From positions 28,809-92,808 of IMG/VR virus record IMGVR_UViG_3300025102_000012: a stretch of 64,000 bases of DNA; one strand, given 5' to 3'. The DNA is from a virus. How positions within the stretch are numbered: the first letter of the stretch is position 1; the number at the start of each line of letters is the position of its first letter. Both the position numbers and the translations under genes were made by a program. Positions 43,804 through 63,746 of the stretch are shown here, in pieces. The notes below the pieces were generated by a model. That model saw nothing but the letters and a program-made list of their open reading frames with translations. It did no database searches and was not told the origin of the DNA.

Positions 43804-44658
43804 TTATTCACCTATTTTATTTACATCTTTTCCTCTTAATTGTTTTACATTGGTTAAGCCCAATAGCGTTAGAAGTGATTTAGTTTGTAAATAGATGCAC
43901 TTCTCATCTATTTCTGCCTTTTCAGCAATTAAACTTCTAGTATATTCTCTAACAAATACATTAGAAGTTATCCAACAAATACTTGCATAATACGACCTGC
44001 TTTTCGTATAATTAGCATTTAATAAAATTTGCTCAAATCTAGTCAATACCTCAATACTTTGATTGTAAAAAGATAAGTCATTTGTTATCTTTACTAGAGT
44101 TCTTCTTAGATAAGATTCTGGATTTACAGGAGTATAATTTATTTTATTTTTATAAAAAGAATTAATCTTCCTAAGAATCTTTTTGACTAGTTTAGTTTCT
44201 ACTTGGAATTCTTTACAGACTTCTTTTAAAGAAACAGGATTACCTTGTTCCTTCAAAACATAATACACTATTGCTGTTGCTCTATTTTCATAGGTGTATT
44301 TTTTGAAAGAATCTAGCGAAGCATATAGTTCTAAATACACTTCTTCTATTCTTTCTTTGGCTTCTAAAGAAGAAGAAACATTACTCAGTACCATATTACA
44401 ATATATGAGTGCAGTTCTAATATGAGGAGGGGTTGCCGAATAGTTTCTTCTATTGTATTTAGAAGAACCTTTTCCAGTAATTATTGACCCTAAATTACCT
44501 TTATCCGAACTATGTTTCAGTTCACCTTTACCGTCCAATATGTGTACTGTTTCTTCAAATATTTCTTGAACTAAGACTAGGCCGCATTCGGAACATACTC
44601 TTTCTCCTAATCTTTCATCAAAGTAGTTTTCTTTACTTGAGCATTCTTCACAAATCAT
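43804..44658 (-). CDS. tfb: Transcription initiation factor TFB/TFIIB homolog
   Basis: Zn ribbon CEEC...GERVCSECGLV, LGS, two cyclin-like repeats (ATAIVY, YASICW). Confidence 0.8.
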   Translation of the reverse strand: MICEECSSKENYFDERLGERVCSECGLVLVQEIFEETVHILDGKGELKHSSDKGNLGSIITGKGSSKYNRRNYSATPPHIRTALIYCNMVLSNVSSSLEAKERIEEVYLELYASLDSFKKYTYENRATAIVYYVLKEQGNPVSLKEVCKEFQVETKLVKKILRKINSFYKNKINYTPVNPESYLRRTLVKITNDLSFYNQSIEVLTRFEQILLNANYTKSRSYYASICWITSNVFVREYTRSLIAEKAEIDEKCIYLQTKSLLTLLGLTNVKQLRGKDVNKIGE

Positions 44659-49141: not shown

Positions 49142-49798
49142 TTAAGCCTCCTTAAGTAGAGTTTGTGGATATTTAGGATTAGTTGAGTTATATGCTCGTA
49201 CTCCCACATTATACTTTACAGCAAAATGATTACTAGGCCACCACTTAGGCATCTGACCTTGAGGCCATTCCGCAAATTTCCATTTACCTTCTAAGTAATA
49301 GTGTTTGTATGAGTCTATAACAAAATCCCATTCATCGTTATTAGGATTGTTTTTGAAATAATCTTCTTTATCTAACCTATAGACATCAAGCATAGCAATT
49401 GATACAGGGGTTGCTTCACTTGCATCAGCATCATAATCTATTGCTGTTTGAAGTATTCTTTCAAAACTACCATGTTCTTTATTGTATCTTGAATTGTATT
49501 CTCTACATAGTTCAACACCATGTTGAAATAACCATAGTGCGTTGTTATTGTTTTGCCTAGCCCAAATAGTGCTAGGATGATTGAGCATAGCAGGTTTCAT
49601 TAGAATAGAACCACTATCACTATGATATTGTTTTAGTTGCGCTAGTGTAGGTTCATAGCCAAACTTATCAGTGAATTCATTACATAACTCATTGGTATGT
49701 AGCATTTGACAAGTTTCCGTTGGCATTTTTACAACATGCTTGTTTAGCATTTGTTGTGCTGATTCTTTTGGGCATCTTGATAATGCAAATATATTCAT
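49142..49798 (-). CDS. Pyrimidine-dimer glycosylase/endonuclease V-like family protein
   Basis: MNIFAL, KHVVKMPTETCQML, HPSTIWAR, LC.EY..RY.K.H, YKHYY. Confidence 0.7.
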   Translation of the reverse strand: MNIFALSRCPKESAQQMLNKHVVKMPTETCQMLHTNELCNEFTDKFGYEPTLAQLKQYHSDSGSILMKPAMLNHPSTIWARQNNNNALWLFQHGVELCREYNSRYNKEHGSFERILQTAIDYDADASEATPVSIAMLDVYRLDKEDYFKNNPNNDEWDFVIDSYKHYYLEGKWKFAEWPQGQMPKWWPSNHFAVKYNVGVRAYNSTNPKYPQTLLKEA

Positions 49799-51897: not shown

Positions 51898-52341
51898 TCA
51901 CAACGAATCAAAGTTTCCATCCCAAGAACCCTCTTTGAATAGTTTTGCCAAATGTGTTCTTGTTCTCTTTACTATTGCCTTAGCATAGTCTTCGGCATTC
52001 TCATATTGCTTGCCACCTCTAGCAACTAAAACCTTAGCCATTAGAAAATTGCTATTGTAATATGCTAGTGATGATTCTTCTACTAAGGAACAAGCCTTAT
52101 CTATAGAAATTCTAACTGTAGTTGGCACAGAACTCTTTTTGCCCTTACGGAAAGGTGTTCCATCCCTGCCTCTTAGGAGAGCCTTCAATGCACCCTTAGC
52201 CGCATCTCTCTCATCGGGACTATTATCTCCAATTTGAAGATTCAACCTTAGCACCTGCTTTAGTCCATCTTCTAATTTCGTGTCTGCTTCTAAATATTCT
52301 TCAACCTCTACTTTGAGGCTATTCCATTCTATGTTATCCAT
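51898..52341 (-). CDS. Paralog family member 1 (RKG..SS / KE..WDG family)
   Basis: Shares W..., G.P.RKG..S, GG and KE..WDG with 53663 and 56724. Confidence 0.6.
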   Translation of the reverse strand: MDNIEWNSLKVEVEEYLEADTKLEDGLKQVLRLNLQIGDNSPDERDAAKGALKALLRGRDGTPFRKGKKSSVPTTVRISIDKACSLVEESSLAYYNSNFLMAKVLVARGGKQYENAEDYAKAIVKRTRTHLAKLFKEGSWDGNFDSL

Positions 52342-52454: not shown

Positions 52455-52860
52455 CATCTCATGGATGATACATCCCATCATTCGTCTCAAAGTGAGACAA
52501 ATGCCTTATGTTACACAAGTCACTCTTACAGAAGGACATCTCGTAAATTCAATTCGTCTCATCTCATCTCATCCATCTCACCATATATCTCTCTCATAGG
52601 GACTCATAACTACCCTCTAAGAAAAGGACTTATGGGGTAGTAGTATTATGATGATGATGATGATATGAGATATGAGATATATGAGATAGATATAGTGATA
52701 ATATATATTATGTTACATATCTCTACCTCTCAGCCCCAACTATGTCGCATCTCATTCAATTTTTTCGGTGAGACGAATCAAACATTCTATATTATATTAT
52801 TATAGATATACAAGATATAATATTCTTATTATAATACATATAAGACCAATTGAAAGAGAG
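52455..52860. repeat. Non-coding region with direct and inverted ATCTCA/TGAGAT and ATTCGTCTCA repeats (candidate origin)
   Basis: ATTCGTCTCA at 52480 and 52552, inverse at 52769; tandem ATCTC(A) 52561-52580 opposite TGAGATA x3 at ~52666-52688; AT-rich flank; strand switch. Confidence 0.6.
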
Positions 52861-53140
52861 CATTAATTGAATATGCTATACATATAACGATAAGTTTTGA
52901 TAAAAAATAGGGGTTGTTTAAGTATTGCTTAACCAAAACCCTTTGTTAAGTGATGTTATTACCATATGGTTGCACTTTGGTTTAACCCGGTGCGATTTTT
53001 TGAATAGGTTCGCTTCCTATTGGGGGTTTGGAGGGGTGGGACTTCTCAGGAGTTATCATCGCTTAACCCTAAGCGGGGTAATTTTTCATTCCCGTATGTA
53101 CATTCTATTTTGAACTCGTTTCGATACTGCCCCATGAATA

Positions 53141-53386
53141 TTAACCAAATATATCATCAAATATTGTTCTCTTTCTCCCTAGTGGTTTTATGCTACTAGG
53201 TCTATCATGACAAGTAACGCATACATCTGTAAAATCAATTAAGGGATTTGCTGTGTTTCTAAATTTTTCGGTATATACTCGAATATGAGGTTGCCGACCT
53301 GCATAACCGCCTTTGAATTTATCGCATTCATAGCAACTCTTTGTTGGCATTTCTTTTTCCCAATGAATTTCATTTTCTCTAGTCAT
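53141..53386 (-). CDS. Cassette gene, zinc-binding protein
   Basis: CYEC...CVTC; preceded by a 40-aa ORF at 53383..53505. Confidence 0.5.
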   Translation of the reverse strand: MTRENEIHWEKEMPTKSCYECDKFKGGYAGRQPHIRVYTEKFRNTANPLIDFTDVCVTCHDRPSSIKPLGRKRTIFDDIFG

Positions 53387-53662
53387 TCTTCATACCTCTT
53401 AATCAAAATAATGTTATAATTTGGATTTATCACATTTAGTCCATTATACAAGGCGTTGCGATAATATAATTTTCCTCTATAATTTAATATGTCATATTTA
53501 TGCATGGTAAACCCATAACTCTACTATATTTAAGGTAATGACCACAAAGTTACCATTACCATATGGTAGTGCTTTGGGCTACCTTAATTAATATCAAATA
53601 GAGTTACTTGGGTGCTTCAATGGGGAGCAAACACATCAAATCAACCATAAGGAGTTGAAACC

Positions 53663-54187
53663 ATGAAAGAAACAAATTGGAATATAAATGCAAACAAAGT
53701 AAAGACTTGGGCGGAAACCCAAAACGAAAAAGACCCTCAAGTAATGGCAATTATGCTATCACTTGGGCTTGGTGAAGCGGCAGGTACTGACGAAATGAGA
53801 AGTACATATTGGACGGCTATTCGTTCAATAGGTTCTACTATGGAAGGTTTTCCAGCCGCTCGCAAAGGACAGTTATCATCACTTACAGACAAACAACAGA
53901 TTGTTTTGGATGCTGTGGAAACAACAGTCGTGAATGCTTTTGCGGCAATCCCTACTGAATACCACGATGTCATACTTGCTGTCATTGTACCAAACGGTAG
54001 GACTGGTGGCGTATTTGAAGATTACAACGCATTCACTAGCGACATGAAAAGAAAGGCTCACAACTATATGTTGAAGTCAATCAAAGAAAACCGTTGGGAC
54101 GGAACAAAGGCAAACAAAGCCGGAGTACCAACAATAACCCCATCGGTTCCAAAATCAAAGGTCGAAGAGGTGACTGAAGAGGTTTGA
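53663..54187 (+). CDS. Paralog family member 2 (cassette gene)
   Basis: AAGGAG SD; MRSTYWTAIRSIGST identical to 56724. Confidence 0.7.
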   Translation: MKETNWNINANKVKTWAETQNEKDPQVMAIMLSLGLGEAAGTDEMRSTYWTAIRSIGSTMEGFPAARKGQLSSLTDKQQIVLDAVETTVVNAFAAIPTEYHDVILAVIVPNGRTGGVFEDYNAFTSDMKRKAHNYMLKSIKENRWDGTKANKAGVPTITPSVPKSKVEEVTEEV

Positions 54188-54314
54188 TGTTGTTGTTTCC
54201 CCATTGTTGCGCCTTTGCGCTTCATTGGGGTTCGCCAAAGACAAACCATATGGTTGTATGCTTTGCATACGACCCTAATATATCAATTAAGAATATTTTG
54301 TTTGGTGATAAAAT

Positions 54315-55025
54315 ATGGATATGACATACGAGCGCACAATGAAAATTAAATATACAGAAAACGAATTAACAGATACAGAAATGAGAAAACTAGCCCACGA
54401 CTTACAACAAGAAGGGCTTGATATGGTAGATTGGGGAAATGAGGAAGTATTACAATACGGATTCAAACCAATGACCACAACTAAAACTCGCCATGTAATA
54501 AAAAACAGTAGGGGCAAAGTAATTTACTCAAACACATACCGACACAATACCGCAGAAGTTTACAATCAAATAAAAGAGTTCTACAAAGTAACAAGAGAGG
54601 AAGTGGAACAAGTTACCACAATCGAAGGTTGGGTAGAGCCGAACGGAACTAGGTTGAGCCTTGTTGATGAAAGTGACAAATATAGAATAGTAACGGATTA
54701 TGTTGGTAATTATTATTATGAGGAAGAAGAAGTACAAATGCTAGTCAAAATAAATAATAGCAGTTATCAAGGTTTTACATTAGAAATAATTACTACTTGG
54801 AAGACTGATAAAATTCAAAGAGCAGACCTTATCAAACAACGATTAGTAGAACTTCCACTTGAAGAAGTTGGTAAAATACAAACTATCTTAGAATCTTGTT
54901 TGAGTGAGTATAGAGTAGTACCCGAACATCCGGAGATTGATTGTCACTTTGATGCTAAGACTGAAACAACTAGTGAATGTTCACCCGATATAATCAAGTT
55001 AGTTAGAGAGGCGAGAAATCAATGA
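54315..55025 (+). CDS. Cassette gene, hypothetical protein
   Basis: 236 aa, GGTGA SD, after palindrome 3. Confidence 0.65.
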   Translation: MDMTYERTMKIKYTENELTDTEMRKLAHDLQQEGLDMVDWGNEEVLQYGFKPMTTTKTRHVIKNSRGKVIYSNTYRHNTAEVYNQIKEFYKVTREEVEQVTTIEGWVEPNGTRLSLVDESDKYRIVTDYVGNYYYEEEEVQMLVKINNSSYQGFTLEIITTWKTDKIQRADLIKQRLVELPLEEVGKIQTILESCLSEYRVVPEHPEIDCHFDAKTETTSECSPDIIKLVREARNQ

Positions 55026-55168
55026 AGACATACAAGATAATAAGATTTAGACAAGGTAGAGAAACAATAACAATACAAACGGGATTGACACTTGAAGAAG
55101 CACAAGCCCATTGTCAAGATGATGAAACAAGAGGAGATGGTTGGTTTGACGGTTACACTGAAGAATAA
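55022..55168 (+). CDS. Small phage-type protein (48 aa)
   Basis: MKTYKIIRF...GLTLEEAQAHC...WFDGYTEE; ATGA overlap with upstream gene. Confidence 0.55.
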   Translation: MKTYKIIRFRQGRETITIQTGLTLEEAQAHCQDDETRGDGWFDGYTEE

Positions 55169-55398
55169 ACTCATTAACATTGTATCACTTGAATGTGCTA
55201 GAACTGACCACAGACATGATTTAAAGCACTGTAAGATTTGTATGAAGGAGAGGAGGAAAAATGGCTCATAAACCCCAAACCAGCATCAATTAAGTTTGAT
55301 GCCCTGTAAGTCCTATATGGCAAGGTTATGCAAAGCATAACCATATGGTAATGTAACTTTGAGGACTACCCCATATACTATCTAGAAATTGGTTTGTC

Positions 55399-55587
55399 AT
55401 GCAGAAATGTAGAGGAATTGCAGGGAAAGGTTGTGGAAAAACAGCATCTTACAGATTGCCATATGCGACAGTTTGTTTTGAATGTTTTGAGATTAATAGA
55501 AAAGATTGGGAATCTAGAGATGAATTAGAAAAAGCCTCAATTCGTCGAGAATGGCGAGTTCAAGGAATTCCTAATCCTTTCGATTAG
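55399..55587 (+). CDS. Cassette gene, small Cys-rich protein
   Basis: C...C...CFEC; ATG about 25 nt after a TATA-like element. Confidence 0.55.
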   Translation: MQKCRGIAGKGCGKTASYRLPYATVCFECFEINRKDWESRDELEKASIRREWRVQGIPNPFD

Positions 55588-55686
55588 GTTTTCCGGCCTC
55601 TTTTGAGGCCACTAACCACAAAGTTATGACCATATGGTTGGGAGGCTTTGTTCTCAACCCTAAATAGGGTTGTTAGTTCTTTGGGC

Positions 55687-55902
55687 ATGTCAAACGATAC
55701 CACACTAGTAGGATATGTAAGAATGACCAACGCAGGGGGACAAATCAAAGTTTCAATCAATGTTGATGCTTTCAAAGATTGTCAAACCTATACAACAAGT
55801 GACGGACAAGTATATGTCCCACTGATTATATCAGCAAATGCTCTAAAAGCAGTACAAGATGGAGAAAGAGTAGTAACAACAATCTTTCAGCATGTAGATT
55901 AA
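55687..55902 (+). CDS. Cassette gene, hypothetical protein (likely leaderless)
   Basis: ATG in TTTGGGCATG about 26 nt after TAAATA. Confidence 0.6.
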   Translation: MSNDTTLVGYVRMTNAGGQIKVSINVDAFKDCQTYTTSDGQVYVPLIISANALKAVQDGERVVTTIFQHVD

Positions 55903-55933
55903 TTCCAATGGTTATTAGTGGCCATAACACTAT

Positions 55934-56090
55934 TGAGAAACGAAGGCGAAAGTCAAAAGACCAATATATCAGTCGGAAGGATATGCACGACAGGTTGCAC
56001 AGTGAAGAATACTAGTTGTACTTCATTCACTCCCCTAGAGTCAAGTATCAGCGCTTTAGCGGCTTTTGAATTAGTAGCCCAAGTTTCTCA
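55934..56090 (-). ncRNA. Candidate structured non-coding RNA (~155 nt)
   Basis: Nested stems TGAGAAAC/GTTTCTCA, GGGC/GCCT, TCAAAAG/CTTTTGA, GGGGA/TCCTT enclose two hairpins; G-U pairs only on the minus strand. Confidence 0.55.
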
Positions 56091-56189
56091 TGAGTATTGG
56101 GGTAATGCAAAGCATTACCATATGGTTGCTTCTTTGGTAATAAACCCCGCAGGGAAAATGGCCGAAACCATCTTTTTTGTCGGGATATC

Positions 56190-56579
56190 TCAATAATCTG
56201 CTCTTGGATATCCGTATTGGCCGTAAGTGCAATTATTACACATACAATCGGTATTACAAATATCAAACCCATATCTGCTCCGCCTATATTTTTGAAGGCA
56301 TATGTAGCAATCGGGATTACTTTCATATTCATCACATTCACAATATAACAAGACTTCTAAATTGCTATATGCGTCTTCTATCGGCTTTTTTGCTTCTTTT
56401 GGGAGATTTTTATAGAATGGTTCTTCCATTAAGAGTTTGATAGCGTCTAACTCTTTTAGAGTTGTATCTTTTCTAGCCTCTATCTTCTCTCGTATCTCTT
56501 CATCCGTCAATCCTTCATCTACCCATTGTTCGTATTCGTCTTCGCTGACTCTAATATCATCACCAAAGAATATTGGCAA
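56190..56579 (-). CDS. Cassette gene, acidic N-terminus and Cys-rich C-terminus
   Basis: TTG start after GGTGA; CEC...CYIC...C...CMCNNC. Confidence 0.55.
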   Translation of the reverse strand: MPIFFGDDIRVSEDEYEQWVDEGLTDEEIREKIEARKDTTLKELDAIKLLMEEPFYKNLPKEAKKPIEDAYSNLEVLLYCECDEYESNPDCYICLQKYRRSRYGFDICNTDCMCNNCTYGQYGYPRADY

Positions 56580-56723
56580 TATTCACCTATACTTAGGGTA
56601 GACAAAGCCTACCATATGGTTGTAATCGCTTTGCGAGCGTAGTGCATTACAACCCTAATACTTACAGGAAGTACAGGGTTGCTTCGGAGGGATTGAAGCA
56701 TTAACTTTTAAGGAGTTGATAAT

Positions 56724-57233
56724 ATGAAGGAAGAAAATTGGATAACAAACATAAACAAAGTAAATTTGTGGCTTGAAGAAGAAGATAGAGGAGCAAGCGG
56801 CCAAGCAATTGGTTTGTCTATTACTCTAGGAAATGACTGTGGTAGTGACGATATGCGTTCTACTTATTGGACGGCTATCCGTTCTATAGGTAGTACATAT
56901 ACCGACTTCCCTTTAGCAAGGAAAGGCCAAGCATCTACATTACCAGTAGAAATACAAGTGGCGGTAGATGGTGTGACTTCTGCGGTACAATCTGCTTTTG
57001 CGGATATTACTAATGGTGAGTTAATTACTACTGTAATCTATGCAGGGCTTGGTCGAAGAGGCGGAAAATACTCTTCAATGAATGAATTTGCTGACTATAT
57101 GGCTAAACAAGCAGGTCAAAACCTGTTGAAAGGATATAAAGAAGGTCGTTGGGACGGAACCATGAATGGCGATATCCCGACAATGGCTGCTCCTCCTGTA
57201 AAGGAGAAGAAGGAGGCCAATAAAGAAGATTGA
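56724..57233 (+). CDS. Paralog family member 3 (cassette gene)
   Basis: AAGGAG SD; clear paralog of 53663..54187. Confidence 0.7.
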   Translation: MKEENWITNINKVNLWLEEEDRGASGQAIGLSITLGNDCGSDDMRSTYWTAIRSIGSTYTDFPLARKGQASTLPVEIQVAVDGVTSAVQSAFADITNGELITTVIYAGLGRRGGKYSSMNEFADYMAKQAGQNLLKGYKEGRWDGTMNGDIPTMAAPPVKEKKEANKED

Positions 57234-57339
57234 TGCGGCATTCCCTCCGTTGCACCTCTTTAGGGGGCAATGGCAAAGCCATTACCATATGGTAGTAACT
57301 TTGTGGTACCACACTAATAGGGTTAGATTTTATTTGGGC

Positions 57340-57690
57340 ATGTTTACGAAGAGTATTGGTGATGAAGAAGACGGAGTAGTAGTTAATGTAGGATTATGTG
57401 CTGGAAGGCATGATATTGAGGGAATCACTGATTATATTTTTTCAGAACCTATTGAAAATCCTAATGACTTTAAAACTCTAAGACAAATCGCAAATGAAAG
57501 ATTAGAGGAAATGTGGAATGATGGAAATTGTATCAACATTTATGTTACTGGATTAAGCCAAGCATTAACTATCGTTTTATCAGAAGTTTTTGGTTTATAC
57601 GAATTAACAGAATATGATATTCTGGTTCAGGTCTATCATTGGGATAGAGAAACAGAAACCTACAAGGGTCATACCATCGTAGGTAGTTAA
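57340..57690 (+). CDS. Cassette gene, alpha/beta protein (likely leaderless)
   Basis: ATG in TTTGGGCATG; GLCAGRH..I...YIF...IYVTGLS.AL...YHWDRE. Confidence 0.6.
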   Translation: MFTKSIGDEEDGVVVNVGLCAGRHDIEGITDYIFSEPIENPNDFKTLRQIANERLEEMWNDGNCINIYVTGLSQALTIVLSEVFGLYELTEYDILVQVYHWDRETETYKGHTIVGS

Positions 57691-57784
57691 AACCCTTCGG
57701 GGCAACCTCAAAGATATTACCATATGGTGTGGTCTTTGACCGTTGGTAATACACCCTATATAGGAGGTATTTGAGTCAATAGTC

Positions 57785-58267
57785 ATGGATAATGATATTA
57801 CCATTAATAAGGAGGCAAAAACTAACAGTTCTATAACTCTCCATGTATGTAGAACTGGGAAGAAAGAGCAATACTACACCCTATACGAGGAAGGGATAGT
57901 AGCAAGACCATATAGGTGCAATTACTTTTGTAACTATGTACAAAACTTAGCACACTCAAAAGTTGATGCTATGGAAAAGGCACAAAAGAGGCAACAAGAA
58001 TTAGTTGATAGTGGCTTTTGGTTCACTGTTGAAGTAGAATATCATGATTCTCCACGAATCATATATGCTAGAATGGAGGCCTTTGGTGCTGAATTCAAGA
58101 CTTCTAAATCCGGTACTACAATGTGGGCTAACGCTACACCCGAATTTTGGGACAATTGGAAAGCAAATAAACAATTAATCAAGAATGCTGGATTTTGGGT
58201 CAAGAGAACTAATACTGGTCAATGGCTTGTTTTCGTCAAGAGGGATGCAGACTTCGATTATAGTTGA
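57785..58267 (+). CDS. Cassette gene, hypothetical protein
   Basis: ATG about 25 nt after TATATA, following palindrome 9. Confidence 0.6.
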   Translation: MDNDITINKEAKTNSSITLHVCRTGKKEQYYTLYEEGIVARPYRCNYFCNYVQNLAHSKVDAMEKAQKRQQELVDSGFWFTVEVEYHDSPRIIYARMEAFGAEFKTSKSGTTMWANATPEFWDNWKANKQLIKNAGFWVKRTNTGQWLVFVKRDADFDYS

Positions 58268-58800
58268 GGCCTAATAAAAAACACATGATGTTTTCCCCAA
58301 TTGGGGTTTTTACGGGCAAAGCCCAACCATATGGCTTTGTATTCTAAAATTTTTATTTTTGATTAGATTAAAACAAACAGGCTTTTAATGTAGCGTTTTG
58401 CCTATTTTCAAAGAACTAATATTGCTTTAATTAATACCGATGAAGTTATATCTTGCATAACATTACGCTTTCTTGATACGGATGCCTACTAATGAAGAGA
58501 ACTACAAATACTCTTTTAATTGTATTAGTTTTTTAATATAACTTAATTAGTACGCATATGTAACAACGGTAAATGGAGGTAAAGCGTACTTTTAAATGAA
58601 TTACTGGTTAAATTCTAATTAACTAATTCAGAATTATATAGGTTAAATAAAACAATTAAAAACTATATTATTATTATAAATCAATACATTATAATTAAAT
58701 GATTATCTTTTTATCCTGTTTATACATACGAATATAAAAAAATAAAAACGCAAGTGCCAAATAAATTCCACCACATTTTTTGAGAAAAAGAGATGATAAC

Positions 58801-59040
58801 ATGACATGGAAAAATAATATTAAGAAAAAAGACACATTAGACGACCTACCCGAGGGATTTAATAAAAGTATAGGGATAGTAATACGAGGGCTTGAAAATG
58901 CCGATTTGTTTGAATATTTAGATGAGAAACAAAATAGAGGAATGACTAATAGTGATTTAATCGGTTTACTTGATGATTTACAAGGAACTCTTGAGAAACT
59001 AATGGAAGCAGATTACGATAGAAGAACAGGTAATATTTGA
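58801..59040 (+). CDS. MxW-tag family protein (MTWKNNIKK)
   Basis: ATG at 58801. Confidence 0.6.
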   Translation: MTWKNNIKKKDTLDDLPEGFNKSIGIVIRGLENADLFEYLDEKQNRGMTNSDLIGLLDDLQGTLEKLMEADYDRRTGNI

Positions 59041-59073
59041 AAAAATCCGCCACAAATTTTTGGAGAAATTAAT

Positions 59074-59298
59074 ATGACATGGAAAGACGAGATTAAAAAA
59101 GAAGATAGAAGAAGTCCTGTTGATATGGGCGATGGTGTTCCTTTAAGTAAGATAGAAGAAAATATTTACCAAGCCCTTGCTAATGTTGAAGATAAGTGGG
59201 AAGCAAGAGATAAAGAAGAAAACAAAATTAGGCGAGAAACTATTAAGAGATTAGAAGATGCCTTAGAAGATATAGCAGAATTATTAAAAGAGGATTGA
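59074..59298 (+). CDS. MxW-tag family protein (MTWKDEIKK)
   Basis: ORF track. Confidence 0.6.
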   Translation: MTWKDEIKKEDRRSPVDMGDGVPLSKIEENIYQALANVEDKWEARDKEENKIRRETIKRLEDALEDIAELLKED

Positions 59299-59300
59299 TT

Positions 59301-60041
59301 ATGACATGGCAAGATATTCTAAAACGCCTAAGTTCTTATGAAAGAGCGACGGTTGAAGAGTTTGCCTTTGAAGAGTTATTTAAAAATAGAAGAAATATTA
59401 AAATTCCTAAAAGAAGAGATACTAAGGAAGTTAGTCGTGGGTTTTCCCCTTCTCGCCCTGCCATTAAGACAGGCGAGCAAATCCAAGCCGACAAAGAAAA
59501 ACTAAAACAAAAAGGGGAAAGGCAGAAAAAGATAAATCTCTATATTAAGAATATTGAATATACGGAAAAGAAGTCGAATGATAATTTAAAGATTCTTATT
59601 GACAAGATAGAACTCTACGAAGCAACAAGCAGATTCGCAAGAGAAGATTTGGATAAACTAGAAAGTGATAGCACAATTGACTCCGAAGATGAAAGGATTC
59701 TCTCTCTTGAAAATAGAATAAAACAAATAAGCGAAGATTCCGAAGAATTTATTGTTTATCACATTGTATATTATTTTATTGATGTTGTTAAGCGGTTTGT
59801 TAGACTAATGGAACAAAGAAATACAATTCCTAAACAGGGAGAAGCAACGGAAGCGCATTTAATAGAAACAGTAGGTTTAGACGACGAGGATAAGCAAAGA
59901 ATAGAGAGAGCATTTGTTAATACAAAGAAAGCCCTACTAGAAAATTATAAAAAATATGATAAATATGTTGGTTTTCTAAGAGAGGATAAAGAAAATTTTG
60001 ATAAATATAAAGAACTAAAAGAAAAATTAAAAGGTGAATAA
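59301..60041 (+). CDS. MxW-tag family coiled-coil protein (MTWQDILK)
   Basis: ATG at 59301. Confidence 0.6.
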   Translation: MTWQDILKRLSSYERATVEEFAFEELFKNRRNIKIPKRRDTKEVSRGFSPSRPAIKTGEQIQADKEKLKQKGERQKKINLYIKNIEYTEKKSNDNLKILIDKIELYEATSRFAREDLDKLESDSTIDSEDERILSLENRIKQISEDSEEFIVYHIVYYFIDVVKRFVRLMEQRNTIPKQGEATEAHLIETVGLDDEDKQRIERAFVNTKKALLENYKKYDKYVGFLREDKENFDKYKELKEKLKGE

Positions 60042-60042
60042 T

Positions 60043-60222
60043 ATGACATGGAAAGAAATTTTAAAAGAAAAAAATGATGATGAAATCTTGGAAAAAAACA
60101 AAGATAAGCCGGATTATATTGATTTAGATAAAGACGGCGATAAGAAAGAATCTATGAAACAAGCGGCTAAAGATGCTAAAAAGAAAAAAGGAACAAATAA
60201 TGCTTTTATGGCTAGGGATTAA
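60043..60222 (+). CDS. MxW-tag family protein (MTWKEILK) with DxDxDG motif
   Basis: KPDYIDLDKDGDKKESMK. Confidence 0.6.
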   Translation: MTWKEILKEKNDDEILEKNKDKPDYIDLDKDGDKKESMKQAAKDAKKKKGTNNAFMARD

Positions 60223-60224
60223 TT

Positions 60225-60380
60225 ATGACATGGAAAAAAATTCTAAAGAATGAAGATGAAGAGGAACTTCCGGAGCATGTTAAAAGAGCGAGAGAAAGAG
60301 TAAGACAGGGATTACCTTCTAAAGAACAACCGCTTATTTCTCAATTTGATGATAAAAAGAGAATGAAGAGTGATGAATAA
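60225..60380 (+). CDS. MxW-tag family protein (MTWKKILK, 51 aa)
   Basis: Read manually; below the ORF-track cutoff. Confidence 0.55.
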   Translation: MTWKKILKNEDEEELPEHVKRARERVRQGLPSKEQPLISQFDDKKRMKSDE

Positions 60381-60381
60381 T

Positions 60382-60489
60382 ATGACAAGGTGTAATTATC
60401 TCGATAAGTGGTTTGATGCAAAGTCAAAAGAAGTAGACAAGAAAGAGGCAAAGTCAAAGAAGTGTTTTGTTACAGGTGGTAAGAAATGA
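60382..60489 (+). CDS. Small hypothetical protein (35 aa)
   Basis: MTRCNYLDKWFD...CFVTGGKK; read manually. Confidence 0.4.
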   Translation: MTRCNYLDKWFDAKSKEVDKKEAKSKKCFVTGGKK

Positions 60490-61031
60490 GTTGGGAAGAT
60501 GTATTGAAGAGAAAGAAGGTCGTTGATGGATTTTATACTAGTGGAGAGAATGAAGCCCGTAGAAGGGCATTTAAGTCACTTAAAAATAAATATCCCACAT
60601 ACCCCACATTTTACAACGAAAAAGAAAGAAAACAATTTAATAAAGAACTCAAAAGAAAAATTAGAGAAGAAATGAAAAAAGTTAGGAGAGAAGGATATAC
60701 AATGTCGCTACCGGCTCACCGCCAACCAAGAGGTAAAACTAGACCAAGAGATTCTAAAAAAGTTAGAGATGCACAAAGAGACAAGCGAGAACAAGAAGAA
60801 GCATTTGGCGATGTAACAGATTCACCTAGTTATGAACAACCTCAACCAAAGGCAAATCAACAAAGAAAAAGAAAAAAGGTAGGGTTTGGAATGGCAGGTA
60901 ACAAAACTAACCCAATGCCAAGAAAGGCTAGAATGAAAGCAAGAAATCGCCCATATAATCCATTTTCAGGAGAAGGCAGACAGGTTGGTAAGAAAAAGCA
61001 TCATCACAAGTATTTAGGTGATAAGAAATGA
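60486..61031 (+). CDS. MxW-tag family, highly basic protein (MSWEDVLK)
   Basis: R/K-rich, likely disordered. Confidence 0.6.
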   Translation: MSWEDVLKRKKVVDGFYTSGENEARRRAFKSLKNKYPTYPTFYNEKERKQFNKELKRKIREEMKKVRREGYTMSLPAHRQPRGKTRPRDSKKVRDAQRDKREQEEAFGDVTDSPSYEQPQPKANQQRKRKKVGFGMAGNKTNPMPRKARMKARNRPYNPFSGEGRQVGKKKHHHKYLGDKK

Positions 61032-61168
61032 ATTGGAGAGATATTCTTAAAGTAGAAAGCGACGAGGAGAAAATGGCGGGAGCAGTAACTACATCCTCTT
61101 CTCCTGCTTTATTTAACATTTCATACGGGAAAAAGAGGAAGAAAGATGGCGAAGAAGAAGAAGATTAA
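61028..61168 (+). CDS. MxW-tag family protein (MNWRDILK, 46 aa)
   Basis: Read manually; ATGA overlap. Confidence 0.55.
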   Translation: MNWRDILKVESDEEKMAGAVTTSSSPALFNISYGKKRKKDGEEEED

Positions 61169-62255
61169 TGTTGGCGGAAATAATTTTAATCAAGATTTTA
61201 ACAACTTAAAATTTGTTAAAGACTATGATGAATGGAAAAATAACTGTTTAAGTATTAGTGGGGAAAGTATTGGTGTCGTCAATATTCCAACTCTTTATGA
61301 TTTTCTAATTGTGCATGTATTTGAAAACATTAGGCCTAATTCCGTGAATTTAGGAAGAGATGGAGAAGGGGCGATTGAGGCTCTTACTGCGATAGAAAAA
61401 ATAATGGATGAACAGGTATTAACTAATTTAGATATTTCTAAAATTAGAAAATTAGCAAATACATTAAAGAATTTAGAAACAGAAGATACTCTTAATCCAA
61501 AGGACATAGTTTTTACTGAAACTACTTACGATAGAGCCGGTGATGTTAGTGGAGAAAGAAGATTAGCCGGTCACTACAGAACACCCGAATATGTTAAGAG
61601 GTCTAAAAGCCAAAACACACTACCTGCTGTTCCTTCCGGTTGGTATTCGGGAACAGGTAATCCTCCTTCTTGGGCTTTATTTGGTGGTAATTCTACTTAT
61701 GCAAAACCAACTGGGCTTGTTGAAATAATGGAAGGAATCACTGATGAACTAGGAAAAGAAGGTACAGGAATATCAATTAGAGATTTAGAAATTGTTGATA
61801 TTAAAGGTAGAAACCAAGTTGATAATTTGTCCGGTATTCGTGGCGTTGAGAAATATTTTGATGATATAATTACCAAAGAACAATTTTGGAAGGGAGGAAA
61901 ACTTCTAGTTGGTAAAGTCGCTGATGATTTTAGCGCCCAACAATTTAAACCAACTCCTAGAGAACAAAGTAAAGTTAGGGCATTAGCAGGATTAGGAACA
62001 GGTAAAGATTCAATAGCAGGTATTATTAGAGAATTTAAAATTACTTCAACGGCACTTCCTATCATTGATTTAGTAAATGCCGCTTTAGTTAGAGCAGGAA
62101 CAAATAAAGCGCCCGATGGATATAGAGCGTGGCAAAATGCTAGAAGAGGCGGGTTTGATTATAGAAAAACTAGAAGAGAAAAGTTCGGTGAAGGTACTCA
62201 AAGTCCTGATAGCAAGGTAATTTCTAAAAAATGGCAATCTTATCTTTGGAGATGA
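61146..62255 (+). CDS. Hypothetical protein (369 aa)
   Basis: Long ORF; ends KWQSYLWR. Confidence 0.6.
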   Translation: MAKKKKINVGGNNFNQDFNNLKFVKDYDEWKNNCLSISGESIGVVNIPTLYDFLIVHVFENIRPNSVNLGRDGEGAIEALTAIEKIMDEQVLTNLDISKIRKLANTLKNLETEDTLNPKDIVFTETTYDRAGDVSGERRLAGHYRTPEYVKRSKSQNTLPAVPSGWYSGTGNPPSWALFGGNSTYAKPTGLVEIMEGITDELGKEGTGISIRDLEIVDIKGRNQVDNLSGIRGVEKYFDDIITKEQFWKGGKLLVGKVADDFSAQQFKPTPREQSKVRALAGLGTGKDSIAGIIREFKITSTALPIIDLVNAALVRAGTNKAPDGYRAWQNARRGGFDYRKTRREKFGEGTQSPDSKVISKKWQSYLWR

Positions 62256-62260
62256 TTTCT

Positions 62261-62923
62261 ATGATAACAAGAAAACGCTGTGGTTTTTGCCAACATGAAG
62301 ATAGGGCAGAATTAGAGCGAATGCTTGAAAGTAGAGAAATGACTTGTGATGAGTTAGATGAAAAATATGGATGGAGAAGTGGAACTGCGGCTCAACACCA
62401 AAGAAATCATATGGGGGATTATGTCAATAGTAGTAATCCTAAATGCGTATTATGTACAGACCCAATGAGAAAACATTATGAAACTGCTATACACAATGGA
62501 GAAATAAATTCAGATGCAGTAGCAACGGCATTAGATACTACGAAACAACAAATTCAAAGACATATGAAACATCATCTTACTCCTATTGTTCAAGAAAGTG
62601 CGGCTATGATTATTGCTCAAAAAGAATTAAATGAAGTAGATTTACTTTCTAACAATGTTCAAAAATTAGATGTAAGATTAGAACAAGTATTCAACGACTT
62701 AGGAAACGATTTAGACCCTAAGATGATTGATGCTTTGACTAAACTTGCTAGAGAAATTAGAGAGTCGCTAAAATATCTTATGGAGTTTAAGGGTAAATTG
62801 GTTCACAAGAGACAAGATACAATTATAGTTCATCAAATGCAAATAGTCCAAGAAGTGTTGGCGCAAAACAATCCCGAAATTTGGTTAGACATTAAGAAAA
62901 GAATGCAGGAGAAATTACAATGA
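62261..62923 (+). CDS. Putative terminase small subunit-like protein (two CxxC...H..HM repeats plus coiled coil)
   Basis: CGFC...HQRNHM and CVLC...RHMKHH repeats, then a helical region. Confidence 0.45.
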   Translation: MITRKRCGFCQHEDRAELERMLESREMTCDELDEKYGWRSGTAAQHQRNHMGDYVNSSNPKCVLCTDPMRKHYETAIHNGEINSDAVATALDTTKQQIQRHMKHHLTPIVQESAAMIIAQKELNEVDLLSNNVQKLDVRLEQVFNDLGNDLDPKMIDALTKLAREIRESLKYLMEFKGKLVHKRQDTIIVHQMQIVQEVLAQNNPEIWLDIKKRMQEKLQ

Positions 62924-63084
62924 ATTGGGAAGATATATTAAAAGAGGAAAAAAGAACTAAAGAAATGATGGCTGAAATAAAACAAAGCCTTCACGAATTA
63001 TTATTTGACGGTGAAAGAAAAGAAAGAATTACCGTTCCGAGAGAATTTCTTCATTTGATTTGGGGAATGCTTAGTGATTATTAA
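62920..63084 (+). CDS. MxW-tag family protein (MNWEDILK, 54 aa)
   Basis: Read manually; GGAG SD, ATGA overlap. Confidence 0.55.
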   Translation: MNWEDILKEEKRTKEMMAEIKQSLHELLFDGERKERITVPREFLHLIWGMLSDY

Positions 63085-63101
63085 TGCAGGAGTGATTCAT
63101 A

Positions 63102-63461
63102 ATGAGTTGGGAAGGTATATTGAAAAACGAATTTACGCTTTGGGCTAAAGTAGAAGACACTAGAAATTGGATGGAACTAGCAAAAGAAATAGGCTCAAGA
63201 GAGGATATGTTTGAGGTAGCAAAACATGAGGCAAGAAAAATAGGTAGGACAGTAGTGGGTAGTGCTTCCGAAGGTAAAATAGTTACTATTGATGAAGGCA
63301 TTTTTGAAAATGTTACCGAGCCTTTAATTTATTATGTAATTAAACCAACAGGAGATTCCGCACCCGACCCTTCTTACATACCTAATACTACCGAGTCCAA
63401 TACCGCAGAAGGAGTCCAAAGAAGATTTAGGGGAGATTTCGATATTAGCGAAAGATATTAA
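63102..63461 (+). CDS. MxW-tag family protein (MSWEGILK)
   Basis: ORF track. Confidence 0.6.
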   Translation: MSWEGILKNEFTLWAKVEDTRNWMELAKEIGSREDMFEVAKHEARKIGRTVVGSASEGKIVTIDEGIFENVTEPLIYYVIKPTGDSAPDPSYIPNTTESNTAEGVQRRFRGDFDISERY

Positions 63462-63473
63462 GGAGAAATTACA

Positions 63474-63746
63474 ATGAGTTGGAAAGATATACTTAAAATG
63501 AGTCCAGCACCGGAACTGATTAAATTAGGTGGAGTTTTCTATGGGTTAAACTTCAATAGGCCAATTAGTCGTAAAGGATTCTATAACTATTTGCCCCTAC
63601 ATATAGAAACTAAAAGAATAACTGATGTTGGTGAATTCTTATCGGGAGATGGTGTTGATGTTGATATTGCTGACGCAGATGAACATGCTTTTGTAGGCCG
63701 TAGAGGAGAAATGGCAGAAAACTATTTTAGGATGAAAAATCAATAA
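63474..63746 (+). CDS. MxW-tag family protein (MSWKDILK)
   Basis: ORF track. Confidence 0.6.
   Translation: MSWKDILKMSPAPELIKLGGVFYGLNFNRPISRKGFYNYLPLHIETKRITDVGEFLSGDGVDVDIADADEHAFVGRRGEMAENYFRMKNQ

Follow-up and report, generated by a model that had tools for sequence, protein, structure and literature searches.

A block of small genes in a magrovirus-like genome is divided into units by ten copies of a bipartite palindrome, which lies between the GC hairpin ending one unit and the ACCCTAWWTA TATA-like box starting the next. In our judgement, the best reading of the palindrome is a promoter-coupled operator or upstream activating site (UAS) that doubles as a recombination seam, and we consider this reading probable, though well short of certain. 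Positions given below are those of the window, which is the whole 64-kb stretch of DNA that was analyzed.

A single array of bipartite palindromes

A scan of the window found the core palindrome ACCATATGGT in 9 exact copies and once as ACCATATGGC, confined to 52961-58335; shuffled sequences contained 1.9 copies on average and 5 at most, against the ten observed. No core copy was found elsewhere in the 92.8-kb virus genome. The bipartite form, CAAAG-N(3-8)-ACCATATGGT-N(4-8)-CTTTG, had 8 matches in the 92,808-bp genome, all of them within the array block, while a reversed-pattern control had none. Both arms are present in eight copies of the window, and the eight internal copies each span 29-32 nt. 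Core repeats recur every 0.3-1.1 kb, ten copies across 5.4 kb and one per gene boundary, and none of the plausible genes in the window contains a copy. A sequence-only reading of this DNA had described ten palindromes with a nearly invariant core, placed between plausible genes and 29-32 nt long in the eight internal copies. All of this was confirmed, with each copy at the coordinates given, and the restriction of the full motif to the array, which had been noted for the window, is true even for the whole genome. The copies, of which only the tenth is assigned a strand, are as follows.

52946..52979, copy 1, left array boundary; core and right arm, without left arm; a one-armed first copy is also found in relatives
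53545..53576, copy 2, divergent promoter boxes on both flanks
54236..54265, copy 3
55331..55361, copy 4; contigs of a co-occurring relative part from the window at the core end, 55349
55619..55650, copy 5
56108..56136, copy 6; hairpin of a minus-strand gene on the right, orphan box on the left
56603..56633, copy 7, divergent promoter boxes on both flanks
57274..57303, copy 8; contigs of relatives part from the window at 57308
57709..57738, copy 9
58317..58365, plus strand, terminal variant copy 10 followed by an A/T run, conserved right array boundary: CCATATGGCTTTG

The core of copy 10 ends in C, and its arm is fused to the core (GGCTTTG). This terminal variant was found in 48 loci, in 46 of which it is the last array copy.

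The surroundings of the array call to mind binding sites of a protein that acts in replication, partition or packaging (origin iterons, ORB-like, parS-like or pac sites), which would be intergenic only through tolerance. The array adjoins a switch in gene orientation and GC skew, with a cumulative minimum near 52.6 kb, and is flanked on both sides by A/T-rich, gene-free stretches; palindromes in clusters are a usual feature of parS and ORB sites. However, the copies are spread over the block at gene boundaries rather than placed beside an unwinding element, and they keep a fixed distance to TATA-like boxes and start codons. ParA/ParB and Orc1/Cdc6 were absent among the Pfam matches listed (25 of 49 families) in a scan of the window ORFs from 19 kb to the end, cassette genes excepted. 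We thus regard this explanation as very improbable.

Promoter boxes and terminator hairpins

Enriched k-mers in the palindrome flanks fell into two classes, an ACC[CT]TA box and a hairpin, AACCCCGAAGGGG. The box was present on 52% of the sides with a gene reading away from the palindrome, compared to 28% of those with a gene reading toward it, for a pattern that matches only about half of promoter sides. The hairpin showed the opposite distribution (14% reading away, 51% reading toward), and its k-mers are enriched at gene-end sides. GC hairpins had been noticed before the next palindrome, and they are indeed present before copies 3, 5, 8, 9 and 10. Boxes and hairpins in the window are listed here.

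53524..53536, minus strand, promoter box ACCTTAAATATAG of the 40-aa gene 53383-53505(-), 31 nt upstream of its ATG
53581..53595, plus strand, promoter box ACCTTAATTAATATC of gene 53663-54187; RNA contig start at 53620
54272..54283, plus strand, promoter box ACCCTAATATAT, 43 nt upstream of the ATG (54315)
55368..55379, plus strand, promoter box ACCCCATATACT, with leaderless spacing, 31 nt upstream of the ATG (55399)
55657..55668, plus strand, promoter box ACCCTAAATAGG, 30 nt upstream of the ATG (55687), exactly the first position of an RNA contig
56094..56103, minus strand, orphan box ACCCCAATAC, 4 nt from the left arm of copy 6, no ORF behind it
56586..56599, minus strand, promoter box ACCCTAAGTATAGG of the minus-strand gene 56190-56579
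56652..56663, plus strand, promoter box ACCCTAATACTT of gene 56724-57233; RNA contigs from two runs (one sample) start at 56689
57311..57322, plus strand, promoter box ACACTAATAGGG, 29 nt upstream of the ATG (57340)
57753..57764, plus strand, promoter box ACCCTATATAGG, 32 nt upstream of the ATG (57785)
54199..54230, plus strand, GC hairpin, end of cassette 2
55595..55610, plus strand, GC hairpin, end of cassette 4
57248..57272, plus strand, GC hairpin, end of cassette 7
57689..57704, plus strand, GC hairpin, end of cassette 8
58295..58306, plus strand, GC hairpin, end of cassette 9

Distances between these elements are tightly set. Arm and box are mostly 4-10 nt apart, and the box lies 29-32 nt before the ATG for five genes of the window, with a peak at 30-31 nt in relatives. 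From arm end to ATG, relatives show a sharp peak at 36-39 nt (78/266), a sign of leaderless promoters. A box stands on each side of copies 2 and 7, which lie between divergent genes. The ACCCTAWWTA box differs from canonical archaeal BRE/TATA (TTTAWATA), and matches to sigma-70-type promoters were not enriched (22 found, 24.9 in shuffles).

Transcripts and the form of the site

Metatranscriptome contigs align end to end within five units, including one at 53152-53214 in cassette 1. Three contig starts, 53620, 55687 (an ATG) and 56689, lie about 30-39 nt past the box starts, although these are assembled contigs from one sample, which cannot fix 5′ ends. The palindromes are crossed by no metatranscriptome contig, though DNA contigs do cross them.

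The copies had also been described as bulged hairpins. Isolated 29-32-nt copies can indeed fold, at -5.6 to -10.2 kcal/mol; selection for the hairpin, on the other hand, found no support, with no covariation extending either stem among 286 homologous unique copies. The halves flanking the core are not complementary (z = -2.2) and assort independently. This favors a site read as duplex DNA over a hairpin. Across the 286 unique copies the core is invariant, while identity has dropped to 25-70% in spacers and flanking genes, a mark of constraint on the sequence itself. Arms are retained at most sides (promoter sides 80%, terminator sides 75%), compared to a background of 2.4%. Core-to-arm spacers float between 2 and 9 nt with a weak compensating correlation (r = -0.18), which is awkward for one rigid protein touching all three elements; one possibility is that the arms form part of the promoter while the core serves a separate factor.

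These data also bear on whether the palindrome is a bidirectional terminator or insulator between units, acting as an RNA hairpin or a protein roadblock, and not a promoter element. The palindrome is always found between units, RNA contigs end short of it, isolated copies are foldable, and a conserved T-run, as is typical of archaeal termination, comes after the terminal variant. However, internal copies are without a T-run, most genes already have a separate GC hairpin upstream of the palindrome, and the copies between divergent promoters have no upstream gene to terminate. Neither the missing covariation nor the freely varying internal loops fit a maintained hairpin, and the sharp arm-to-ATG distance points to the promoter side. 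A terminator or insulator is therefore an unlikely explanation.

Cassette genes

The genes of the array and the neighboring family member are as follows.

51898..52341, minus strand, third, divergent family-0 paralogue, adjoining the array on the left; position kept in relatives
53141..53505, minus strand, cassette 1, two small genes, 81-aa Cys-rich (53141-53386) and 40-aa (53383-53505)
53663..54187, plus strand, cassette 2, 174-aa magrovirus-specific "family 0" protein
54315..55168, plus strand, cassette 3, 236-aa gene and 48-aa gene (55022-55168)
55399..55587, plus strand, cassette 4, 62-aa Cys-rich (zinc-ribbon-like) protein
55687..55902, plus strand, cassette 5, 71-aa protein, then 205 nt without ORF
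56190..56579, minus strand, cassette 6, Cys-rich protein of about 129 aa, start codon uncertain
56724..57233, plus strand, cassette 7, 169-aa paralogue of cassette 2 (46% identity)
57340..57690, plus strand, cassette 8, 116-aa protein
57785..58267, plus strand, cassette 9, 160-aa protein

The cassette-2 family-0 protein is all-alpha, without known fold or Pfam family. Two negative results weigh against the reading of the palindrome as a protein docking site: no recognizable DNA-binding fold was found in this ubiquitous family, and the small neighboring proteins had no DNA-binding Pfam matches. A structured RNA had been suggested to fill one interval. This was not sustained, as the interval had no Rfam or tRNA match and its folding signal was weak (plus strand z = -2.4, minus strand -0.3).

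Distribution among relatives

The genome encodes a split PolB, a thermosome, an ATP ligase and a TFB homologue, as in magroviruses, which supports its earlier assignment to an archaeal virus. In the phage collection, the nearest named relatives are haloarchaeal tailed viruses other than HGTV-1, whose PolB sequences are about 25% identical to the one here. The motif was found in at least 118 IMG/VR stretches and invariably forms a single cluster per genome, with 3-13 copies in 2-6 kb. A search of 185,579 prokaryote genomes gave 40 single matches, compared to about 35 expected arithmetically, and one 5-copy contig, which is a mis-binned virus; none of the matches is in Poseidoniales.

Shuffling of cassettes and breakpoints

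Order, content and orientation of the cassettes vary between relatives, with both inversions and transpositions. In 68 flank-oriented arrays, family 0 was found 51 times in plus and 27 times in minus orientation, family 1 14 and 5 times, and family 2 14 and 3 times. For example, cassette 1 has a homologue of 74% amino acid identity in the relative L057, and the 48-aa gene of cassette 3 is 96% identical there, yet belongs to a different cassette on the opposite strand. In L109 and L096, the cassette-8 homologue precedes that of cassette 7 and does not follow it as in the window.

Ends of high-identity matches (HSPs of at least 88% identity) lay within 10 nt of the core centre in 16% of cases, compared to 4% at random, a four-fold enrichment of homology breakpoints, which pile up at the core edges. 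Contigs of co-occurring strains likewise leave the window sequence at 55349, the core end of copy 4, and at 57308. The palindrome half adjoining a cassette is conserved with that cassette better than the far half. The palindromes had been proposed to delimit cassettes whose content, order or orientation would change there in relatives; the units are autonomous, such changes were found, and breakpoints are enriched at the palindrome.

Shuffling of this kind could also be the work of dedicated site-specific recombination sites, integron- or shufflon-like, in which an unrecognized recombinase acts in the 10-bp core and the promoters are merely cargo. Such sites would account for an invariant core whose halves assort independently, for breakpoints exactly at its edges, for a proximal half that moves together with its cassette, for the inversions and transpositions, and for first and last copies that are conserved special variants. 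However, no Tyr or Ser recombinase, Y1-HUH transposase or Hjc resolvase was found in the complete genome, so that the absence of a recombinase stated earlier for the window extends to the rest of the genome for the Tyr, Ser and Y1-HUH classes. Tyr recombinase was absent in 20 of 20 near-complete relatives, while positive controls were detected in 14 of 14. In addition, 76% of homology breakpoints lie more than 20 nt from any core, and no excision or inversion joint with long flanks was found within the population; the joints observed have sides of only 22-40 nt and may stem from other viruses. Dedicated recombination sites would also leave the tight geometry to TATA-like box and ATG unexplained, and we give them little credence. 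The integron attC analogy drawn in the sequence-only reading is not supported either, since each cassette has its own promoter, both orientations occur and no Tyr, Ser or Y1-HUH recombinase was found. Among the options of that reading, the best fit is with regulon operators and with promoter stem-loop cassettes of the T4 type.

A proposed promoter-coupled site that doubles as a recombination seam

Under the promoter-coupled reading, the bipartite palindrome would be a site in double-stranded DNA where a sequence-specific and probably dimeric protein docks, most likely one encoded by the virus, and would make up the upstream portion of a promoter class specific to the virus. The proposed order is the GC hairpin of the previous unit, CAAAG, spacer, ACCATATGGT, spacer, CTTTG, 4-10 nt, the ACCCTAWWTA box (BRE/TATA-like), about 22 nt, and the transcription start, often the ATG itself. 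Its symmetry allows the site to work with a promoter at either side or both. Archaeal upstream activator sites, the Ptr2 UAS of Methanocaldococcus and the TFB-RF1 site of Pyrococcus, are likewise palindromic and directly upstream of BRE/TATA, and there TBP/TFB recruitment can be stimulated from an upstream protein-binding site (reviewed in PMC5569661). The matching position suggests co-activation, or at least co-regulation, although Ptr2 and TFB-RF1 are host regulators with one or few targets and activation is proposed here solely from position.

Early genes of crenarchaeal viruses such as SIRV2 and SMV2 offer a second comparison (Bhoobalan-Chitty et al. 2024, PMC11065993), in a study whose coverage does not extend to magroviruses. 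Consensus regulatory sequences occur at their early and anti-defence genes, and, as in the array, many unrelated small single genes that are clustered and variable between relatives have a common conserved core-promoter sequence. However, that sequence is a canonical strong BRE plus TTTAWATA, not ACCCTAWWTA. Inverted repeats in the promoter consensus of some crenarchaeal viruses, taken as a regulator binding site, overlap the BRE, suggesting a repressor, whereas the palindrome here is upstream of the box. Early timing and anti-defence function were demonstrated there and are possibilities for our array.

The closest parallel is with promoter-early stem-loops (PeSLs) of T4-type phages (Arbiol et al. 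2010, PMC2839356; Comeau et al. 2014, PMC4122927). In both systems, hyperplastic regions hold small and mostly unknown genes with short, composite, conserved regulatory motifs between them, every gene forms a self-contained unit bounded by terminator and promoter, and indel or replacement breakpoints fall at the motifs, which are recombination seams as well as regulatory signals. The array differs in host domain and promoter type, with an archaeal TATA-like box and leaderless starts. Moreover, the conserved element is the terminator stem-loop in PeSLs, whereas here a separate symmetric bipartite palindrome stands between terminator hairpin and promoter and serves promoters on both sides, cassette inversions are common, and shared identity is merely the 10-bp core and two 5-bp arms. 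According to the account in PMC3950731 of Sencilo et al. 2013, the haloarchaeal tailed virus HGTV-1 has a conserved TATA-like-plus-inverted-repeat motif before most left-arm ORFs, which its authors compared with PeSLs and proposed to act in transcription regulation and shuffling. Both are archaeal tailed viruses, of different lineage and host, and our motif is conserved over more than 100 metagenomic genomes with measured shuffling.

Integrons also contain small variable genes between imperfectly palindromic repeats, with content differing among relatives. Unlike integrons, the array is without an integrase, its cassettes have their own promoters in both orientations, and its palindromes are without attC-type structural covariation; the conserved part is the palindrome centre and not the outer R boxes. 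A promoter-coupled site that is also a recombination seam would thus be PeSL-like, not integron-like.

As a second property, the invariant 10-bp core would be a preferred crossover point, although ten shared base pairs are few for ordinary homologous recombination and three quarters of the homology breakpoints fall away from palindromes. Any palindrome equals its own inverted repeat, so that an exchange between two copies could delete, insert, move or invert whole promoter-gene-terminator units, unbroken. We believe that the roughly ten monocistronic accessory genes may form one regulon, possibly an early or anti-defence set, and that unit exchanges at the core would keep this block hypervariable among relatives.

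Occurrence and form of the palindromes

A sequence-only reading of this DNA had described an array of gene cassettes delimited by ten bipartite palindromes, and inspection of the window sequence found all ten present (copies 1-10, 52946-58365). The core, ACCATATGGT, occurred nine times exactly and once as ACCATATGGC, all within 52961-58335, compared to a mean of 1.9 and a maximum of 5 occurrences in dinucleotide-preserving shuffles of the window. In the whole 92,808-bp record, which CheckV rated complete and of which the window is bases 28809-92808, the full pattern CAAAG-N-ACCATATGGT-N-CTTTG was found eight times, every one inside the array block, and a reversed-pattern control of the bipartite motif was found 0 times. 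Internal copies spanned 29-32 nt, with spacers of 3-8 nt. Copy 1 had no left arm, and the right arm of copy 10 was fused to a core ending in C. A one-armed first copy was also seen in relatives, and the last-copy variant, CCATATGGCTTTG followed by AAATTTTTTATTT-like sequence, was present in 48 related loci, with no later core in 46 of them. Since the variants of both the first and the last copy are conserved, the block is a delimited module. The palindromes avoid coding sequence, with 21% of cores inside an open frame of at least 300 nt, compared to 52% of random positions in the same arrays.

The array adjoins the point where gene orientation and GC skew switch. The following features lie around it.

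Features flanking the array
52.0-52.6 kb (approximate): minimum of cumulative GC skew; gene orientation changes here from minus to plus
52600-52940 and 58340-58690: AT-rich stretches without genes, one on either side of the array
58689-58830: segment with 77-85% nucleotide identity in many relatives, above that of neighbouring genes; about 350 nt past the last palindrome, at the end of the AT-rich gene-free gap and before the first gene of the right-end operon (ATG 58801)
58801-63746: genes right of the array; the first two products begin MTWKNNIKK and MTWKDEIKK

The AT-rich stretches and the skew minimum may mark a replication origin or a divergent control region, and the segment 58689-58830 may be a strong promoter, a leader or a small RNA. 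Were the right-end proteins virion components, a regulator brought in along with the DNA could be among them.

Promoter-like boxes and hairpins at the unit boundaries

The k-mers enriched within 45 nt of the arms were of two kinds, ACC(C/T)TA(T/A)A boxes and AACCCCGAAGGGG-type GC hairpins, and hairpin, palindrome and box occurred together at every gene boundary of the block. Flanks were compared for 250 unique full motifs of related loci (among the matches listed), of which 217 lay outside ORFs by a simple ORF call. Counted with a narrow box pattern and crude ORF calls in the relatives, sides with a gene reading away from the palindrome carried a box in 52% and a hairpin in 14% of cases, and sides with a gene reading toward it carried a box in 28% and a hairpin in 51%. 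The box started mostly 4-10 nt from the arm, and the distance from arm end to ATG showed a sharp peak at 36-39 nt (78 of 266). From box start to ATG, the peak in relatives was at 30-31 nt. Leaderless archaeal mRNAs typically have a TATA element about 24-27 nt ahead of the start, and the 30-31-nt peak is the signature of such mRNAs. A second, broader class of arm-to-ATG distances, at 76-100 nt, comprised mainly genes of family 0, a family of magrovirus-specific proteins, with a Shine-Dalgarno leader.

Distance from box start to ATG in the window (position of ATG, distance)
53505 (minus strand), 31 nt
55399, 31 nt
55687, 30 nt
57340, 29 nt
57785, 32 nt
54315, 43 nt (longer set)
53663, 82 nt (longer set; family-0 gene of cassette 2)
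56724, 72 nt (longer set; family-0 gene of cassette 7)

Copies 2 and 7 had a box on each side, heading divergent genes, and units were found on both strands, each having a box of its own with constant spacing to the ATG. Palindrome and box were common to eight to ten units of the window, a pattern repeated in at least 118 stretches of relatives. Elsewhere the genome was operon-packed, with few intergenic gaps and no such box ahead of genes. As the box class is confined to the array block, it constitutes a separate promoter class. Its consensus, ACC(C/T)(T/C)A(T/A)(A/T), had no purine-rich BRE before it when compared with a yardstick of a strong canonical BRE plus TTTAWATA, which may not be that of Poseidoniales. 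Sigma-70-like sites were not enriched (22 found vs 24.9 in shuffles).

This fixed promoter geometry bears on two other readings of the palindrome. It could act as a terminator or insulator; that role would leave the distance from box to start codon unexplained, and we consider it unlikely. Sites of replication, partition or packaging, for which the neighbouring skew switch might be cited, leave the same geometry unexplained and appear more improbable still.

The long leaders of family-0 genes (53597-53662 and 56664-56723 in the window; related loci L017, L022, L024, L042 and others) shared a hairpin, TTGCTTC-(G/A)GGGG..-GAAGCA, before an AGGAG ribosome site. That of cassette 7 lies at 56680-56700, and RNA contigs begin within it, at 56689. 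The hairpin may be a conserved 5′-UTR control element of this gene family.

Transcripts

RNA data were taken from two metatranscriptome runs of one sample, a snapshot without timing, whose contigs came from close relatives (90-99% identical). RNA contigs aligned end to end within units 1, 2, 3, 5 and 7. One started at 53620, 39 nt past the box start, another at 55687, exactly at the ATG and 30 nt past the box, and two at a position 37 nt past the box of cassette 7. Palindromes were crossed by none of nine RNA contigs, and several were crossed by DNA contigs of other runs. By rough arithmetic, random placement of contigs of the same lengths in the block would leave every palindrome uncrossed about once in 1000 times. 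As contigs cannot fix transcript ends and one sample was covered, this evidence for the unit boundaries is supportive, not decisive. Parts of the block lacking RNA contig cover, such as 55291-55497 and 57361-58800, are uninformative either way.

Conservation and distribution of the element

A pattern scan of IMG/VR detected the element in at least 118 stretches, many of them on contigs of 85-100 kb, with 286 unique full copies among the matches listed. In 26 long relatives the 10-mer core was present in 1-13 copies (3-13 in 25 of the 26), and core positions, where listed, formed a single cluster of 2-6 kb per relative. The position of this cluster along the contigs varied, as expected of circularly permuted assemblies, so that a location "near the right end" is meaningless.

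Among 185,579 prokaryote species genomes, the exact bipartite pattern gave 40 single matches, vs about 35 expected by chance (5.96e11 positions × 64 spacer combinations / 4^20), with no match in the Poseidoniales genomes of that set. One contig of the prokaryote set (L152; NZ_NZTP01000027.1, 14.8 kb) had five full palindromes. It is filed under an Altibacter sp. MAG (flavobacterial), and the family-0 protein P0082 carries the same organism name; the contig is almost certainly a magrovirus fragment mis-binned into a bacterial genome. Since the prokaryote scan yielded chance-level singletons and this mis-binned contig only, the element is virus-specific. The GenBank phage collection contained no DNA match to the array, the magrovirus papers searched made no mention of the palindrome element, and the core string was found in no relevant paper.

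The window encodes a tail-tube protein, a two-piece family-B DNA polymerase, an ATP-dependent ligase, a group-II chaperonin, clamp-loader-like AAA proteins, an XPF/ERCC4 nuclease, a PD-(D/E)XK nuclease and a 293-aa TFB/TFIIB homologue. The nearest named relatives of the polymerase were haloarchaeal tailed viruses (about 25% identity). The genome agrees with group B magroviruses, which have a split PolB and a size near 100 kb (PMC5434244), and the runs holding this DNA are marine metagenomes. On these grounds, the virus may reasonably be regarded as an archaeal virus of marine group II.

Exchange and inversion of cassettes

ORFs of all loci were clustered into families, and 68 arrays were oriented by conserved flanks, some of them by few flank genes. 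Among relatives the block was hypervariable and the flanks syntenic. Family orders differed between the 68 arrays, and both strands were used (plus/minus: family 0, 51/27; family 1, 14/5; family 2, 14/3; family 17, 3/3). For example, the homologue of cassette 8 follows that of cassette 7 in the window and precedes it in two related loci, L109 and L096; the 48-aa gene at 55022-55168 has a counterpart with 96% identity in the first cassette of locus L057, on the opposite strand; and loci L021 and L062 have collinear flanks with one cassette moved and inverted.

Breakpoints were taken as internal ends of HSPs between loci (at least 200 nt, at least 88% identity). Of these ends, 16% lay within 10 nt of a core centre, vs 4% of random positions, with left ends concentrated on the first core base and right ends on the last. 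Cassette order and orientation thus vary among relatives with breakpoints enriched at the palindrome, which the sequence-only reading had put forward as a check. About three quarters of breakpoints were elsewhere, and the palindrome is thus a breakpoint hot spot, not the sole seam. In homologous cassettes, conservation was higher in the gene-proximal half of the palindrome than in the far half; the scores at 60-80% protein identity were 4.5 and 1.4, respectively, the proximal half being better in 62% of pairs vs 30%. That left and right halves assort independently is consistent with exchange through the centre. Contigs from the population of this strain also left the window sequence at 57308 and, exactly at the core end of copy 4 (55349), passed into a different spacer, arm and box. 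Chimeric assembly is unlikely to have caused these divergence points, since assembler k-mers are much longer than the repeat. Joints between palindromes with short sides (22-40 nt), possibly from other viruses or the repeat itself, were not counted as rearrangements of this strain.

Such breakpoints would be expected if the palindromes served a dedicated recombination system. The sequence-only reading had left room for a recombinase in the rest of the genome, and a six-frame search of the genome detected none: no tyrosine recombinase (PF00589), serine recombinase, Y1-HUH transposase (PF01797) or Hjc resolvase. Tyrosine recombinase was likewise detected in 0 of 20 near-complete relatives, with 14 of 14 positive controls recovered. 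The only recombination-related enzymes found in the genome were nucleases of a general repair/recombination type; a ligase is also encoded. It is improbable, in our estimate, that the core is the crossover site of an undescribed recombination system, encoded by magroviruses without a tyrosine, serine or HUH recombinase and actively moving and flipping promoter-equipped cassettes. Under that reading the one-armed first and fused-arm last copies would be the fixed ends of the array, and the system, if real, would be the archaeal-virus counterpart of integrons or shufflons, with a palindrome that also serves as a bidirectional operator. A dedicated recombination system also leaves the fixed promoter geometry unexplained.

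A conserved sequence, not a conserved fold

Isolated copies can fold at -5.6 to -10.2 kcal/mol, and each had been read as a bulged hairpin. Selection for a hairpin was not upheld: in 286 copies (among the matches listed) there was no excess of complementarity extending the outer stem inward or outward or the core stem outward, the bases flanking the core were less complementary than in shuffles (z = -2.2), and the 10-nt centre was invariant. Left and right spacers each ranged from 2 to 9 nt and were weakly anticorrelated (r = -0.18). Arm sequences, with a background frequency of 2.4%, were retained at 80% of promoter sides and 75% of terminator sides. Local arm-centred hairpins were somewhat over-represented (position ±1: 0.52 vs 0.34) in a subset of copies, though not in general. 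The symmetric site is one unit in which the sequence is conserved, not the structure, and this fits protein recognition of double-stranded DNA.

A structured-RNA cassette had also been suggested, and folding did not sustain it (55903-56107, z = -2.4 on the plus and -0.3 on the minus strand; 52980-53140, minus strand, z = -0.8); tRNA and Rfam scans of the window found nothing. The segment 55903-56107 comprises 205 nt without an ORF between the stop of a 71-aa gene and copy 6, and is 74% identical to related loci L057 and L044. A promoter-like box, ACCCCAATAC (56094-56103, minus strand), points from copy 6 into this segment, which had no RNA contig cover. The motif ARYCTAARYG occurred once in the window, distant from the array and within chance.

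Candidate binding proteins

Cassette proteins and neighbouring small proteins had no significant match to a Pfam or PHROG family. The family-0 protein was considered as a DNA binder (AF2 model, pLDDT 78) and set aside, with no Foldseek match in the PDB; a VIA-wide structure search returned generic three-helix-bundle matches only (Z up to 8.4), and the Atlas gave nothing usable. The replication block left of the array had the following content.

Features of the replication block
19646-52356, minus strand: replication block, including an ERCC4/XPF nuclease with HhH motifs, a PD-(D/E)XK (Cas4/Exo5-like) nuclease and a ThiF/E1-like protein
49142-49798: pyrimidine-dimer glycosylase, within that block
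43804-44685, minus strand: TFB/TFIIB homologue, 293 aa; TFIIB zinc ribbon PF08271 (E = 2.6e-7, above the Pfam cut-off); residues 53-173 match human TFIIB (E = 2.4e-4)

Of 20 near-complete relatives bearing the motif, 19 had a homologue of this TFB. Some rudiviruses and Asgard viruses also encode a TFB (PMC13700489), and the magrovirus papers searched did not mention one. The viral TFB could be a candidate reader of the unusual ACCC-TAWWTA box.

Discussion

The simplest account is that the palindrome is a putative promoter-coupled operator or upstream activating site for a sequence-specific protein, and that it would put about ten monocistronic accessory genes under common control. Its repetition and palindromic symmetry also make it a preferred place for the exchange, movement and inversion of whole units. 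Archaeal repressors usually bind over the BRE/TATA or the start. The location of the palindrome ahead of the TATA-like box appears to match activators instead, such as Ptr2 and TFB-RF1, whose sites lie just upstream of BRE/TATA (PMC5569661).

Likeness to the promoter-early stem-loops (PeSLs) of T4-type phages (PMC2839356, PMC4122927) had been suggested, and it holds in part. PeSLs are conserved composite motifs between small ORFs of a hypervariable region, and the array has the same layout of hairpin, palindrome and box; in both, breakpoints between relatives fall at the motif (here 16% vs 4% of HSP ends, the departures at 55349 and 57308, and half linkage). The likeness does not extend to the sigma-70 early promoter or the T4-type myovirus background, as sigma-70 sites are unenriched here and the gene set is archaeal (PolB, thermosome, TFB). 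Thus the array works like PeSLs but is not a member of that family, because its promoter is archaeal and it has no T4 ancestry. Its layout is also similar to the TATA-plus-inverted-repeat motif of the haloarchaeal virus HGTV-1 (PMC3950731), and to the consensus regulatory sequences by which early and anti-defence genes of Sulfolobales viruses are marked (PMC11065993), where, as here, several single genes of one virus share a sequence around the predicted core promoter.

The proposed integron analogy failed on three features. Integrons have an IntI-type tyrosine recombinase beside the array, whereas PF00589 was absent from this genome and from all 20 relatives; their cassettes are promoterless and in one orientation under a common Pc, whereas those here have their own boxes and occupy both strands; and attC is recognised as a folded single strand with structure kept over sequence, the opposite of the invariant centre found here. 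REP/RAYT elements are associated with a Y1-HUH (IS200/IS605-like) transposase, and PF01797 was absent from the genome. New here are a symmetric bipartite site that is separate from hairpin and promoter and used bidirectionally, the frequent inversion of cassettes, the conserved variants at the array ends, and the spread over a large and abundant family of uncultivated viruses.

In the surface ocean, magroviruses rank among the most abundant archaeal viruses. They and their Poseidoniales hosts are uncultivated, and to our knowledge almost nothing has been reported on their transcription control. The element provides a family-wide cis-signal, made up of the 10-bp core with its two arms and a distinctive TATA-like box set at a constant spacing from leaderless starts. 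With it, transcription units and very small genes can be annotated across hundreds of metagenomic genomes. As a regulatory tag it can serve to pick out accessory, possibly early or anti-defence, genes, as in Sulfolobales viruses. It also allows the cognate DNA-binding protein to be fished in vitro without culture, and the study of a symmetric operator that doubles as a seam of cassette exchange and inversion. Beside T4-type phages and one halovirus, the PeSL principle thereby gains a third lineage, one that is ecologically dominant.
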